DNA from: Candidatus Kaiserbacteria bacterium
GTDB taxonomy: Bacteria; Patescibacteriota; Minisyncoccia; Phycocordibacterales; UBA918
NCBI GenBank assembly: GCA_019634005.1
Contig: JAHQWD010000003.1
Location: forward strand, 2,525-66,524
Length of the DNA stretch: 64,000 nt
Direction: 5' to 3'
The translations under genes and the position numbers were made by a program. Below the pieces are notes generated by a model. It was not told where the DNA came from. It saw nothing but the letters and a program-made list of their open reading frames with translations, and searched no databases. This document shows, in pieces, positions 5,056 to 49,395 of the stretch (positions within the stretch are counted from its first letter, which is position 1; each line of letters opens with the position of its first letter).

Positions 5056-5685
5056 ATGCTTATGACACCTGACGGTAACGATATTATAGTTCAAACACGC
5101 GGCATTGATTTTATGCCGCTGGTTCGTTGGATTGCGCATTTCTTTGGATATGGAGATGATCCACTCGCAGGGCCAACTGTTGATGATTTCATCCTCAGTC
5201 TCTCAAACTTTTGGGAGGTGTATTCTGTTATTGCACTTTTGCTCTCGTTGCTTTTTTTCGCTGGATTTGTGTATGCATATATAAGATACAACCAACTGCT
5301 CGTGGAAGAAGACAATTTGTTACTTGCAGAGGAGCAGAGATGGAGAGAATTGCGTGAGGGTGCAGGAACTCAAAATACAGAATGGGATGCAATTAAAGCA
5401 CATGTTGCAACCGAAAACCCAAATGATTGGAAACAGGCGATCATTGCAGCGGATGTGATGCTGGGGGAGATACTGGAGGTCTCAGGGTACATTGGAGAGA
5501 CTATTGGTGAGCAGCTCAAATCGGCAAATGCACAGCCGTTTCCATCTATACGAGATGCGTGGGATGCACACTTAGTGCGTAATAAAATTGCGCATGGCGG
5601 GCCTGAGTTTGTCCTTACAAAACGGCTTGCACAGGACACTATTGTGCAATATGAGCGGGTATTTCGAGAGTTTGGGGCTGTATAG
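5056..5685 (+). CDS. hypothetical membrane-anchored protein
   Basis: 209 aa with one predicted TM helix (VIALLLSLLFFAGFVYAYI). No recognisable domain. Confidence 0.5.
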   Translation: MLMTPDGNDIIVQTRGIDFMPLVRWIAHFFGYGDDPLAGPTVDDFILSLSNFWEVYSVIALLLSLLFFAGFVYAYIRYNQLLVEEDNLLLAEEQRWRELREGAGTQNTEWDAIKAHVATENPNDWKQAIIAADVMLGEILEVSGYIGETIGEQLKSANAQPFPSIRDAWDAHLVRNKIAHGGPEFVLTKRLAQDTIVQYERVFREFGAV

Positions 5686-5729
5686 GAACTATTGCGCCGA
5701 TACGTAAAAACTGGTAGTGTACTGCACAC

Positions 5730-5800
5730 AGCGGGGTAGAGGAGAGGTACCTCGGGAGGCTCATAACCTCCAGACCCCGGTTCGATTCCGGGCCCCGCAA
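5730..5800 (+). tRNA. tRNA-Met (CAT), initiator-like
   Basis: Folds as a cloverleaf with a CTCATAA anticodon loop, a TTCGATT T-loop and no encoded CCA. The sequence AGCGGGGTAGAGG...CCGGGCCCCGCAA resembles the E. coli initiator (CGCGGGG...CCCCCGCAACCA). Positions 1:72 are A:A, a mismatch as in bacterial initiators. Confidence 0.8.
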
Positions 5801-5807
5801 CACGTCA

Positions 5808-5843
5808 AGAAAACACCGATATACTCGGTGTTTTCTTGTTTTT
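5808..5843 (+). terminator. intrinsic terminator
   Basis: Hairpin AAGAAAACACCG-atatact-CGGTGTTTTCTT followed by a TTGTTTTT run. Confidence 0.7.
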
Positions 5844-5872
5844 GAGGCTTTGAGATGGTATTCTCTCTTCAC

Positions 5873-5946
5873 GTCGGCGTAGCTCAGTTGGTTAGAGCAC
5901 AACACTCATAAAGTTGGGGTCGGAGGTTCAAATCCTCCCGTCGACA
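5873..5946 (+). tRNA. tRNA-Met (CAT), elongator or tRNA-Ile2 (lysidine) type
   Basis: GTCGGCGTAGCTCAGTTGGTTAGAGC...CTCATAA...GGAGGTTCAAATCCTCCCGTCGACA. Anticodon CAT at 5907-5909. Pair 31:39 is A:A. Confidence 0.8.
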
Positions 5947-5953
5947 CTTTTAC

Positions 5954-5983
5954 AAAGACCGCTCTCTGGGCGGTCTTTGTGTA
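5954..5983 (+). terminator. intrinsic terminator
   Basis: AAAGACCGC-tctctg-GGCGGTCTTT followed by a gtgt/T-rich stretch. Confidence 0.65.
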
Positions 5984-6080
5984 TAAATAGGATATATCCA
6001 CGTACTGTTATACTACAATAGTATAAGTGCCTATATTACGTTCATTACATCAAGACTTTTTCAAAAAATGGAGCAATGAC

Positions 6081-6698
6081 ATGGCTTATGTTTTAGGGTT
6101 TTTTGCTGCAGATGGGAGTATGCTAGAGAATAATCGCGGAGCGCACTATATTGAGTTTCATATTACGGACAAAAAGATTTTAGAACAGATGAGGGAAGCT
6201 ATGGGCTCTAATCACAAGATTAAAGAGAGGAAAAGAGATGAAAAATGGAAGCCTATCTACAGACTGCAAATAGGGAGTAAAGTATTCTATGAAGATTTAC
6301 AAAAACATGGTTTTACTCAAGCAAAGAGTCATACTTTAAAATTACCCTTAGTTCCAAAGAAATATATTGCAGATTTTGTTCGTGGGTATTTTGATGGAGA
6401 TGGATGTGTTCACTTTAAACAGTATAAAGTGAGGGGTCGGAAAAAGCCAAAGTGGGTCTTCCAGACTCGTTTTACTTCAGGAAGTAAAAATTTCTTGCAG
6501 GATTTACACAATCTATTAAAAGATTACGGTGTAGCAAGAGGTTTCATTACGAAGAAAAATAGGGGGCACGAACTTGTGTTCAGTCATCGCGATGGTGTTG
6601 CATTATATCGATTAATGTATAATAATACCCCTCGTATTTATTTAAAACGTAAATACAACATCTTCAGAAAAGCAATGAAGACGCTTTATGGAGAATAA
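6081..6698 (+). CDS. LAGLIDADG-family homing endonuclease (double-motif, free-standing)
   Basis: Two LAGLIDADG motifs are present: MAYVLGFFAADGSM and ADFVRGYFDGDGCVHF. The RBS tggag lies 10 nt upstream of ATG 6081. The stop is 2 nt before tRNA-Asp exon 1. AT-rich compared with the flanking sequence. Confidence 0.85.
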   Translation: MAYVLGFFAADGSMLENNRGAHYIEFHITDKKILEQMREAMGSNHKIKERKRDEKWKPIYRLQIGSKVFYEDLQKHGFTQAKSHTLKLPLVPKKYIADFVRGYFDGDGCVHFKQYKVRGRKKPKWVFQTRFTSGSKNFLQDLHNLLKDYGVARGFITKKNRGHELVFSHRDGVALYRLMYNNTPRIYLKRKYNIFRKAMKTLYGE

Positions 6699-6700
6699 CT

Positions 6701-7015
6701 GCGGGCGTAGCTCAATTGGTTAGAGCACCCGCCTGTAGACGTGCAGCTTTCCGTCCGAAAGACGGATTGAAACTTTCCGGGATATCGGTGAAGGCTAAGT
6801 CATTGATGCAGTTAGCTTGAAAAGGTTACTGAGGAGATATGCGAATACCGAGGGAACCCATAACACAAAAACACATAGTTATGGGGCGCCGTAGAGACTA
6901 GATACCGGGATACCTAAGGATAATGAATCTATGGTAAAGATATAGTCCGTGCCATTATGAAAATAGTGGATTTCACGCACGCGGGAGGTTGAGGGTTCGA
7001 GTCCCTTCGCTCGCG
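6701..7015 (+). tRNA. tRNA-Asp (GTC) interrupted by a group I intron (exons 6701-6736 and 6978-7015)
   Basis: Joined exons read GCGGGCGTAGCTCAATTGGTTAGAGCACCCGCCTGT|CACGCGGGAGGTTGAGGGTTCGAGTCCCTTCGCTCGCG. This closely resembles E. coli tRNA-Asp (CCTGCCTGTCACGCAGG...GGTTCGAGTCC), with discriminator G. Confidence 0.8.
6737..6977 (+). mobile_element. group I self-splicing intron (IC3-like tRNA intron) in the anticodon loop of tRNA-Asp
   Basis: The core GCCGTAGAGACTAGATACCGGGATACCTAAGGATAATGAATCTATGG resembles, from memory, the Azoarcus/Anabaena tRNA intron P7/P3/P8-P9 region (GUAGAGACUAGA...CCUAAGG...CUAUGG). The IGS 5'-GUGCAG (6741-6746) can pair with exon CUGU in P1, giving U.G at the 5' splice site, and with the 3' exon CAC in P10. 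A terminal G at 6977 fits omega-G. A P9 extension hairpin carries a GAAA loop. Confidence 0.8.
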
Positions 7016-7056
7016 CAGTTAGAAAAAGAGTCCACGTTTGTGGGCTCTTTTTGTAT
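7011..7056 (+). repeat. direct repeat copy A: tRNA-Asp 3' end plus intrinsic terminator
   Basis: tcgcgcagttagaaaaagagtccacgtttgtgggctctttttgtat. The hairpin is AAAAAGAGTCCAC-gttt-GTGGGCTCTTTTT. A near-identical copy lies at 7752-7796. Confidence 0.8.
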
Positions 7057-7094
7057 AGAGAGTGGTATTGGAATTGTGTGGTATTTTTATCTGT

Positions 7095-7727
7095 ATGGAA
7101 AACAAGATTCTCTGGCACGGTACCGGTAGGTATAAATATGATTCAGAAGGAAATGTCTACGATATCTTTCAGGGAATTATTGAAGATGGAGGATTGGTCC
7201 CGCACTTAGACGAATGGGATCAAAAGCGAGGTGCTTGCTATTCCATATCAACAACTCGCTCGCGTGCATATGCTCGGCTGTATGCGAGCCTTTTCTTTCC
7301 GTCTGATAAACGTAGTTTAAAAGAATTATTTAGAAGACTTATATGGTGTCTTCGTTTCTTCCTCACGAGCAAGTATGTTGCGTGGATGGAATATACACCG
7401 TTTAGACCACACATAACTGATTTTCGGAGGAAGATTATATCTTGGGCAAAGAAATACTCATCAGATACTCGGTCTTTCATATATCTTTTTCTTTGGGGAG
7501 GTACTGACATCCCCAATAATTACCCAATACTGATATGCATAAAAGGAGATGGTATTGCTCCAACCAAGGGATCTCGTTTTGTCGATTTGCATGAAATACG
7601 TAGTGAAGAGAAAATTTCCCTAGAAGATTTTAAGTGTATTGAAGTGCCCAAAGAGCATATTTCAGAGATTCATAGCCTATTACATGTGGCAGGGTGTGAG
7701 ATTCCTGTCGTAACCTTAGACAGTTAG
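7095..7727 (+). CDS. hypothetical protein (cargo of the repeat-flanked segment)
   Basis: MENKILWHGTGRYKYDSEGNVYDIF... ~210 aa, AT-rich, with no recognisable domain. The computed ORF starts with GTG at 7062; ATG 7095 was chosen as start. Confidence 0.5.
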   Translation: MENKILWHGTGRYKYDSEGNVYDIFQGIIEDGGLVPHLDEWDQKRGACYSISTTRSRAYARLYASLFFPSDKRSLKELFRRLIWCLRFFLTSKYVAWMEYTPFRPHITDFRRKIISWAKKYSSDTRSFIYLFLWGGTDIPNNYPILICIKGDGIAPTKGSRFVDLHEIRSEEKISLEDFKCIEVPKEHISEIHSLLHVAGCEIPVVTLDS

Positions 7728-7829: not shown

Positions 7830-7905
7830 GCCATTGTAGCTCAGTCGGTAGAGCGCATCCATGGTAAGGATGAGGTCCCCGGTTCAATCCCGGGCAATGG
7901 CTCCA
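7830..7905 (+). tRNA. tRNA-Thr (GGT)
   Basis: GCCATTGTAGCTCAGTCGGTAGAGCGCATCCATGGTAAGGATGAGGTCCCCGGTTCAATCCCGGGCAATGGCTCCA. The CCA is encoded and the anticodon loop is ATGGTAA. Confidence 0.9.
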
Positions 7906-7941: not shown

Positions 7942-7975
7942 ATACTCAAGCCACATGACAAAAGAGGAGATCACT

Positions 7976-8830
7976 ATGCGTATAGAGGAGATTGAGGCGG
8001 CAATGAATCTGCCAGATTTTTGGAATGACTCCGCAAAAGCACAAGATTTAATAAAAGAGTTGCAGGAACTGAAGGATCAGGCTGAAGGAAAAGGGAAATA
8101 TGATCGCAACAACGCGGTCGTCACCATTGTTGCAGGTGCTGGTGGGGATGATGCAGAAGATTTTGCTCGTATGCTCGTGGAGATGTACCAGAAATATGCA
8201 GAAAAGAGAGGGTGGGGGGTTTTGGTGATAGATTCCAACCCAAATGATCACAATGGATATCGAAACATTGTTTTTGAGATAGAAGGAAATGGGGCGTACG
8301 GAGAACTCCAGACAGAGTCTGGGGTACATCGTCTGGTACGCATCTCACCATTTAACTCCAATGGGAAGCGGCAGACTTCATTTGTACTCGTTGAGGTGTC
8401 TCCAAAACTGAAAGATCACAAGGAAGTAGAACTAAATGAAGACGATCTCGATATTTCTTTTGCACGTTCGGGTGGTGCTGGTGGGCAGAATGTAAACAAG
8501 CGAGAGACTGCGGTGCGTATTGTGCATACGCCAACGAATATCTCTGTACATGTATCTTCAGAGCGAAGCCAGCAGCAAAATAGAGAGAGAGCAATGACAC
8601 TTCTTGCAGGAAAGGTATATGCCTTTGAGGAGGAGCAACGAAAGCGGGAGCTGAAGGGATTGTCCGTGGAGAAGTCAGTGAAGATAGAATGGGGGAGTCA
8701 GATTCGTTCATACGTACTCCACCCGTATCAAATGGTGAAAGATCATCGGACTGATGTGGAGGTTCGTGATGTAGAGAGGGTACTTGATGGTGATATACAG
8801 GAGTTTTTGGACGCGGCAAGGGAACTGTAG
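7976..8830 (+). CDS. prfB: peptide chain release factor 2 (N-terminally short form)
   Basis: GGQ motif ([11 protein letters not shown]) and the RF2-specific SPF motif ([15 protein letters not shown]). RBS aagaggag before ATG 7976. No in-frame UGA or frameshift site is visible. Confidence 0.9.
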
Positions 8831-49006: not shown

Positions 49007-49027
49007 CCTCCTAAAACTGTGTATAAT
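49000..49027 (+). promoter_or_regulatory. rnpB promoter (TTGTCA-16-TATAAT), -35 overlapping the divergent minus-strand -35
   Basis: Plus strand ttgtca (49000-49005), 16-nt spacer, tataat (49022-49027). Confidence 0.55.
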
Positions 49028-49032
49028 TATGG

Positions 49033-49355
49033 AGTCAGATAGTCGCTAAATACCTTGGTATTTAGAGGAAAGTCCGGACACGCCCCAGTATATGGGAGCA
49101 GGGTAGCGGGTAACACCCGTCTAAGGTAACTTACGAGGTGCGAGCAGAGACGCCCATATTCGAAAGATGCGGGATTCCCTCTGGGAATAGCTCTCATGGC
49201 AATATGAGAGGTGAAACGGCTAAATCCTTACCTGCGTGCAAGACCGTATTCTCGCGTTATGTGCACAGCTGTGTACGCGAGTCTGAGTCGCATGAGGAGT
49301 GCGGTAACGTACTTCCTAGGTAGATGACTATCCACGACAGAATCCGGCTTATCGA
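49033..49355 (+). ncRNA. rnpB: RNase P RNA (bacterial type A)
   Basis: GAGGAAAGTCCGGACAC (P4 5' strand), GGTGAAACGGC and, near the 3' end, GATGACTATCCACGACAGAATCCGGCTTATCG (cf. E. coli GAATGACTGTCCACGACAGAACCCGGCTTATCGG). Ends are approximate, +/-20 nt. Confidence 0.85.
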
Positions 49356-49395
49356 CACACAACAGAGCGCCTTCGGGCGCTCTGTTGTGTTACTA
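49356..49395 (+). terminator. intrinsic terminator after rnpB
   Basis: ACACAACAGAGCGCC-ttcg-GGCGCTCTGTTGTGT, a 15-bp stem. Confidence 0.65.

Follow-up and report, generated by a model that had tools for sequence, protein, structure and literature searches.

The window, as we call the whole 64-kb stretch of DNA that was analysed, carries on its forward strand a tRNA-Asp gene that is split within the anticodon by a group I intron. The 5′ exon (6701-6736, GCGGGCGUAGCUCAAUUGGUUAGAGCACCCGCCUGU) spans tRNA positions 1-35 and ends in C32, U33, G34, and U35, and the 3′ exon (6978-7015, CACGCGGGAGGUUGAGGGUUCGAGUCCCUUCGCUCGCG) runs from C36 to the discriminator base G73; both were assigned from the sequence and by ARAGORN in its intron mode. 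The intron between them (6737-6977) is 241 nt long and devoid of an open reading frame. When joined, the exons (74-75 nt) form a canonical tRNA-Asp(GUC) cloverleaf with the anticodon loop CUGUCAC and the discriminator G73, which ARAGORN accepted. CCA is not encoded in the gene, the 3′ exon being followed directly by CAG. The split gene is flanked by: (i) a free-standing gene for a double-motif LAGLIDADG endonuclease of 223 amino acids (6027-6698, forward strand; PF14528, E-value 4.8e-19, and synteny), which ends 2 nt before the tRNA and is a conserved neighbor outside the intron; and (ii) a terminator-like hairpin with a U run (7020-7055, forward strand; fold of -20 kcal/mol, z -7.4) directly 3′ of the tRNA. 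The host belongs to the phylum Patescibacteria, as the neighboring protein is identical to MBX2866625.1 of Candidatus Kaiserbacteria.

The preliminary description had read this locus as tRNA-Asp(GUC) with these exons and an intron of about 241 nt in the anticodon, a reading borne out by the covariance model match, the intron-aware tRNA call, covariation, and published homologs. In intron mode, ARAGORN placed tRNA-Asp(gtc) at 6701-7016 and its intron of 241 nt, i(37,241), from gene position 37 onward, equivalent to 6737-6977, in agreement with the spliced cloverleaf. By default mode, seven tRNAs were called in the 64-kb window, tRNA-Asp not among them, and the split gene is the only tRNA-Asp gene that ARAGORN detected in the window. 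The Rfam model Intron_gpI (RF00028) matched 6711-6969 with 50.2 bits (E-value 8.8e-10 for the 64-kb window), which only just passes the gathering score of 50; its alignment was good for the P3-P9 core and wrongly put P1 in the D arm. The core strings that had been quoted were all present: GCCGTAGAGACTAGATACCGGG at 6888-6909, CCTAAGG at 6913-6919, CTATGG at 6929-6934, and GTGCAG at 6741-6746. Insertion between anticodon positions 35 and 36 (U35 | C36) was likewise upheld by the sequence and ARAGORN. Among the eight registers available in the anticodon loop, 6736|6737 with 6977|6978 alone combines a U at -1 with a G at omega; because this single register has both, the two-base ambiguity behind tRNA-Ala calls is absent here. 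Across 22 aligned tRNA-Asp introns, the wobble pair U6736.G6743 and a G at the position of G6977 were found in 22 of 22, consistent with the earlier assignment of P1 as CUGU/GCAG with U.G at the splice site and of G6977 as omega-G. Uninterrupted tRNA-Asp(GTC) genes from related metagenome contigs shared 81-88% identity with the spliced exons. In two of these uninterrupted genes (e.g., L124) the anticodon arm CCCGC-CUGUCAC-GCGGG is identical to that of the window, and the intron-less arm of L124 is what one would expect of an empty insertion site.

The intron adopts the full group I core from P1 to P9, with its elements (all on the forward strand) assigned from the covariance model alignment and by hand, and with local folds in agreement. 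P1 (6733-6746), supported by folding, consists of C6733-G6746, U6734-A6745, G6735-C6744, the wobble U6736.G6743, and A6737-U6742; its guide GCAG (6743-6746) pairs with C32-U35 of the tRNA, and all five pairs are invariant in the 22 sequences. The P2 hairpin (6750-6766) has a (C)GAAA loop at 6756-6760 and compensatory changes in six of six pairs. P3 joins 6775-6780 to 6905-6910, with 100% of cells paired and four of its six pairs compensatory, the covariation also marking its 3′ strand. P4 (6785-6790/6846-6851) encloses P5 within 6785-6851 and is supported by covariation, folding, and alignment, including a U-A/A-U swap at pair 6785:6851 (12 versus 10 sequences). P5 (6794-6801/6836-6842), placed by alignment and folding, bears a GCUAAG/UAUGC motif similar to the 11-nt receptor. 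Its loop holds an extra ~20-30 nt that fold into a hairpin, P5a (6809-6831, within the region 6802-6835), capped by a third GAAA tetraloop and found in none of the 21 aligned homologs. P6/P6a (6852-6890) follows, with 7 of 11 pairs compensatory. In P7, the 5′ strand (6894-6900: G6894, bulged A6895, and G6896-A6900) pairs with 6943-6948, and both strands are invariant in the 22 sequences; we take G6896-C6947 to be at the position of the guanosine-binding pair, by analogy with G264-C311 of Tetrahymena. P8 (6913-6934) was recognized by the sequence of a canonical 11-nt GAAA receptor, CCUAAG...UAUGG, and its distal pairs are compensatory. P9.0 is formed by GUG (6949-6951) and CAC (6974-6976), which enclose P9 (6952-6958/6963-6969, with the GAAA loop at 6959-6962, supported by folding); the segment 6949-6976 folds at -8.1 kcal/mol (z -2.8), and P9.0 changes on both sides among relatives (ACG/CGU and AUG/CAU versus GUG/CAC in the window). 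Omega-G, at 6977, is the last intron nucleotide. J7/3 is 4 nt and J3/8 is 2 nt in length, and P7.1/P7.2 are absent.

Species-representative genomes were scanned for the core string GTAGAGACTAKATACC, which gave at least 120 loci. Among the matches listed, nearly all were from Patescibacteria metagenome-assembled genomes (MAGs), the closest from Paceibacterota and other Patescibacteria MAGs, and most were located by intron-aware tRNA calling in the anticodon loops of tRNA-Asp, tRNA-Asn, and tRNA-Tyr. Intron-bearing tRNA-Asn was often mis-called as Thr(UGU) by this approach, an error of which the literature also warns. The window intron was aligned with the 21 listed loci that have the junctions CCUGU|AG...GCAGC...RUG|CACG, giving 22 tRNA-Asp introns from different Patescibacteria MAGs. 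In this alignment, 93.9% of cells pair in the P1-P9 structure compared with 36-42% in a control in which partners were slid by 1-3 columns; changes on both sides were detected for 32 of the 61 pairs, and none of 500 shuffles matched the observed value on any measure. The helices that covary are P2, P3, P6a, distal P8, P9, and P9.0. As P1 and P7 never vary, their support is from conservation only and not from covariation. The window intron keeps every position that is invariant in the 21 other sequences, and all of its core helices are intact.

Introns with the GUAGAGACUAKAUACC core were observed at 35/36 in tRNA-Asp, tRNA-Asn, and tRNA-Tyr (L002-L121), hosts that all offer C32-U33-G34-U35 to one guide, GCAG. 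In a neighbor-joining tree of 72 introns, which is unbootstrapped and includes some wrong automatic host calls, at least two separate tRNA-Asp clades seemed to be interleaved with Asn and Tyr clades. The Paceibacteria- and Microgenomatia-type tRNA-Asp introns lie in different clades, which hints at host switching among tRNAs with GUN anticodons. ARAGORN also named tRNA-His as a further host (L037, L051, and L087); on visual reading, the hosts proved to be Asn, Asp, and Asn, respectively.

Group I introns at 35/36 of Patescibacteria tRNAs have been described by Nakagawa, Amikura, Omae & Suzuki (mSystems 2026, PMC13011429; preprint July 2025, 10.1101/2025.07.03.662931), who reported 15 tRNA-Asn and 3 tRNA-Asp cases in 95 complete Patescibacteria genomes, misannotation of these tRNAs by standard tools, and precise in vitro self-splicing of an Asn and an Asp intron, for which omega-G-to-C variants served as controls. 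The Asp intron tested was that of GCA_001029755.1 (Microgenomatia), which spliced precisely at 35/36 (PMC13011429). The insertion class itself was first mapped by tFind in a 2020 preprint by Williams (bioRxiv 10.1101/2020.01.27.920355). Thus, the view that a tRNA-Asp host would be unusual was true until recently and has been overtaken by these descriptions of 2020, 2025, and 2026 (bioRxiv 10.1101/2020.01.27.920355; PMC13011429). In a comparison with the published intron sequences (Table S3 of PMC13011429), the window intron and the tRNA-Asp intron of GCA_023898525.1 (Paceibacteria) had ~89% identity over aligned columns; the two share the agacgtgcagcttt start and the core. Identity over aligned columns was 83% to the Tyr intron of GCA_016699995.1, 81% to the Asn intron of GCA_030583765.1, and 70% to the tRNA-Asp intron of GCA_001029755.1, such that the intron validated in vitro is a more distant relative. 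The window intron shares with the class its host tRNA, insertion site, phylum, U-1/omega-G rule, lack of an open reading frame, and escape from default finders; it differs in residing in another genome, in acceptor and T arms of different sequence, in a shorter P8, and in the extra P5a. Judged by these likenesses, it is a further example of a published, experimentally validated class and not a discovery, because tRNA-Asp introns at 35/36 in Patescibacteria have already been described and spliced in vitro (PMC13011429). The scan adds at least 25 further tRNA-Asp examples in species-representative genomes, which makes the class much commoner than 3 in 95 complete genomes would imply. Standard tRNA finders miss the split gene, so that this genome would be taken to have no tRNA-Asp gene; completeness estimates for Patescibacteria MAGs are affected in this way, a point already made in PMC13011429.

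The subgroup label proposed in the preliminary description, IC3, was not borne out. The P7-P3-P8 region and the two pairs of GAAA loop and 11-nt receptor do resemble those of IC3 introns; however, the label conflicts with PMC13011429, where published subgroup models put none of the tRNA introns from Patescibacteria in subgroup IC, and the P4 and P6 junctions differ. The IC3 traits found in the window intron are the absence of P7.1/P7.2, GAAA loops in L2 and L9, and the receptors CCUAAG/UAUGG and GCUAAG/UAUGC, from which we infer L2-P8 and L9-P5 docking. When set beside the IC3 tRNA introns (Azoarcus tRNA-Ile, cyanobacterial tRNA-Leu(UAA), and tRNA-Arg(CCU)), the similarities are: (i) a compact core free of P7.1/P7.2; (ii) the J6/7-P7 sequence GUAGAGACUAGA, the P8 receptor CCUAAG/UAUGG, and the capping of P2 and P9 by GAAA; and (iii) a location in the anticodon loop after U, with quoted IC3 tRNA-Arg sequences used in the comparison. 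The likeness to Azoarcus tRNA-Ile refers to its sequence and crystal structure. Unlike the window intron at 35/36, the IC3 tRNA introns insert at 34/35, 36/37, or 33/34, and the J3/4-P4 and P6 segments read GAUAUCGGUG...UACCGAGGGAACCC in the window but AAAUUCGGGG...CCCGAGCCAAG in IC3. The pairing of GUG (6741-6743) with CAC of the 3′ exon, previously suggested as P10, was not upheld: it re-uses G6743, the wobble partner of U35, and GUG is found in only 8 of 22 homologs. The canonical P10 register would oppose C6978 to U6742 and A6979 to G6741, neither of which can pair; the proposed P10 thus looks like a chance match. As P10 is reportedly dispensable in some tRNA introns, its absence does not exclude membership in group I.

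Overall, we are confident that the locus is a functional Ca. Kaiserbacteria tRNA-Asp(GUC) gene split at U35/C36 by an open-reading-frame-less, self-splicing group I intron, with catalysis by the window copy inferred from the splicing demonstrated for its homolog only. By this reading, the precursor would be transcribed through to the terminator at ~7020-7055 and the intron would fold into P1-P9, with C32-U35 paired to the guide GCAG (6743-6746) to set U35.G6743 at the 5′ splice site and with the GAAA tetraloops L2 and L9 probably docked into the 11-nt-type receptors in P8 and P5. Exogenous guanosine would then attack after U6736, and omega-G6977, placed by the 3-bp P9.0, would enter the G site in P7, after which exon ligation would restore CUGUCAC. 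Lacking a canonical P10, the exons would most likely be kept together by the anticodon stem (6727-6731/6981-6985); in the Anabaena tRNA-Leu intron, the anticodon stem aligns the exons. RNase P would process the precursor, and trimming of the 3′ end and addition of CCA would complete the tRNA.

The LAGLIDADG gene upstream is part of a conserved array: tRNA-Met, tRNA-Met, [LAGLIDADG], tRNA-Asp, ..., tRNA-Thr(GGU). Its protein family has 3271 members (E-value ≤ 1e-10), with 560+ relatives in metagenomes; the named members are mostly from Paceibacterota, Minisyncoccia, Kaiserbacteria, and other Patescibacteria groups, and the catalytic residues D29 and D125 are invariant in 16 LAGLIDADG sequences. 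Most tRNA-Asp loci that contain the intron have a homolog of 40-56% identity at this place. For the 21 clean intron loci, the upstream gene was found in different states: full length in 11; partial, fragmented, or truncated by the end of the locus in three (L019, L032, and L103); and reduced to a C-terminal remnant of ~35 in-frame codons in five (L035, L044, L086, L092, and L107). L089 may have a displaced remnant, and nothing of the gene was seen in L020. Such full, fragmented, and remnant states are as expected of a selfish element. An endonuclease-centered search of metagenome contigs was also performed, and in about 70 of the best 80 loci examined the tRNA-Asp gene was directly downstream; 59 of these tRNA-Asp genes were uninterrupted, and 11 were interrupted. 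Loci in which the endonuclease gene abuts tRNA-Asp include the window, L005, L016, L023, L039, L047, L048, L060, L084, L097, L101, L109, and L122-L201. In 48 of the 70 loci (among L122-L201) the stop codon is inside the tRNA, often as U8-A9-G10 with the protein ending in ...M-R-x-stop (e.g., L124:855-880), and the frame also enters tRNA-Asp in L005, L016, L023, L039, L084, L097, and L109. Where the stop codon is so placed, the LAGLIDADG mRNA would lose it once RNase P cleaves the precursor. Judged from these comparisons, the gene beside tRNA-Asp is conserved and apparently active.

The five loci with gene loss (L035, L044, L086, L092, and L107) keep the sequence TTGAAA-N15-TATAAT about 105 nt upstream of tRNA-Asp. 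This sequence is encoded by the conserved ...LKLY..MYN... residues, with ATG-TAT-AAT as the MYN codons, and its counterpart in the window (6598-6623) has a weaker -35-like element, TTGCAT, and a 14-nt spacer. The 3′ end of the LAGLIDADG gene may therefore have been co-opted as the tRNA-Asp promoter. A scan for sigma-70 promoters over 5650-7150 returned four sites versus 3.8 expected; the hairpin at 7020-7055 was unlisted and was seen by folding.

Three other explanations were weighed against this picture. It is highly improbable that the locus is a decaying pseudogene, with intron splicing lost and tRNA-Asp supplied by a gene outside the window. The count of tRNA-Asp genes covers 64 kb of a contig of at least 379 kb, the Rfam score is at the threshold, and the additional nucleotides in the P5 loop occur in no other homolog, all of which would be in line with decay. 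Nonetheless, the core helices are all intact with the positions invariant in the 21 other sequences kept, the exons fold perfectly, a second tRNA-Asp is absent from the window, and the unusual P5a itself forms a clean hairpin, capped by GAAA, within a peripheral loop. The chance that the boundaries are off by 2 nt, which would make the gene a tRNA-Ala(UGC) with its intron at 33/34, is negligible. ARAGORN and tFind annotate some homologs in this manner, a mis-call documented in Table 1 of PMC13011429 and also made by ARAGORN for L081, L146, and L147. A shift of -2 in the window, however, puts A6975 at omega, such that the tRNA-Ala alternative is unavailable there; furthermore, ARAGORN calls Asp in the window, and the exons have the 81-88% identity to uninterrupted tRNA-Asp genes noted above. 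We also take G73 and C38 to fit tRNA-Asp, as in E. coli.

It is also quite improbable, if marginally less so than decay, that the intron and the LAGLIDADG gene form one mobile unit by collaborative homing, whereby tRNA-Asp genes that have no intron would be cut by the endonuclease at the insertion site, with the intron shielding its own genome. The arrangement does invite this idea: the gene stops 2 nt before the tRNA; homologs, fragments, or C-terminal remnants are upstream in 19 of the 21 clear intron-bearing tRNA-Asp loci; the catalytic aspartates are invariant; and there are phage precedents (PMC2790892 and PMC6083498). Yet among the best 80 loci the gene is upstream of uninterrupted tRNA-Asp far more often than of interrupted tRNA-Asp (59 versus 11), and some of the intron-less loci share the exact spliced anticodon arm of the window. 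Since the endonuclease resides beside intron-less tRNA-Asp, the intron cannot be needed for self-immunity, and collaborative homing in its strict form is ruled out by the 59 loci. The intron insertion site is probably not the endonuclease target.

A looser tie between the two elements is still rather unlikely, although less so than any of the above: LAGLIDADG may be an active homing endonuclease at the Patescibacteria tRNA-Met/tRNA-Asp junction, with the 35/36 intron hitch-hiking by co-conversion (trans-homing), the insertion site being 36 nt from the 5′ edge of tRNA-Asp. If true, trans-homing would explain how introns that lack an endonuclease of their own stay so common in these reduced genomes. 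The nearest known systems are free-standing homing endonucleases beside introns that are defunct or have no open reading frame, namely T4 mobE with the nrdB intron (PMC2790892) and F-CphI of cyanophage S-PM2 with the psbA intron (PMC6083498), in which the endonuclease gene is also outside, yet within tens of bases of, an intron-bearing gene, and which likewise have present, absent, and degraded copies among relatives. Unlike in these systems, the endonuclease here is mostly associated with the intron-less allele, so that the intron is not an immunity device; in addition, the locus is cellular (Patescibacteria), the enzyme is of the LAGLIDADG family, and its frame often runs into the tRNA. The association of LAGLIDADG with tRNA-Asp was mentioned neither in PMC13011429 nor in the other literature searched. 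It was concluded in PMC13011429 that the tRNA introns mostly lack homing endonucleases and hence are rarely mobile, a conclusion based on a search for endonuclease genes inside introns only, namely those >500 bp; a LAGLIDADG gene just outside tRNA-Asp was not considered. We regard the association as a moderately interesting new side finding and as a more interesting lead than the intron itself.

Additional features were noted in the window and its relatives. The syntenic tRNA-Thr(GGU) downstream (window 7830-7905) is uninterrupted. In relatives, tRNA-Thr was found to have anticodon-loop insertions of ~190-200 nt (ARAGORN i(37-39); L035:7610-7887, L089:7257-7534, and L109:7461-7724), which probably correspond to the 'divergent group I introns' that PMC13011429 mentions for tRNA-Thr at 36/37. 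Within the same tRNA clusters of two related genomes, tRNA-Met(CAU) was interrupted at about 33/34 by introns of ~250 nt (L084:4738-5059 and L003:4397-4718). The window also encodes: (i) a release-factor-2-like protein of 291 amino acids (7955-8830, forward strand) with PCRF and RF-1 domains, which is N-terminally short compared with a typical RF2, its PCRF match beginning at profile position 94; and (ii) a bacterial class A RNase P RNA (49027-49366, forward strand; 131 bits, E-value 5.8e-40), in which several peripheral helices are shorter than the consensus.
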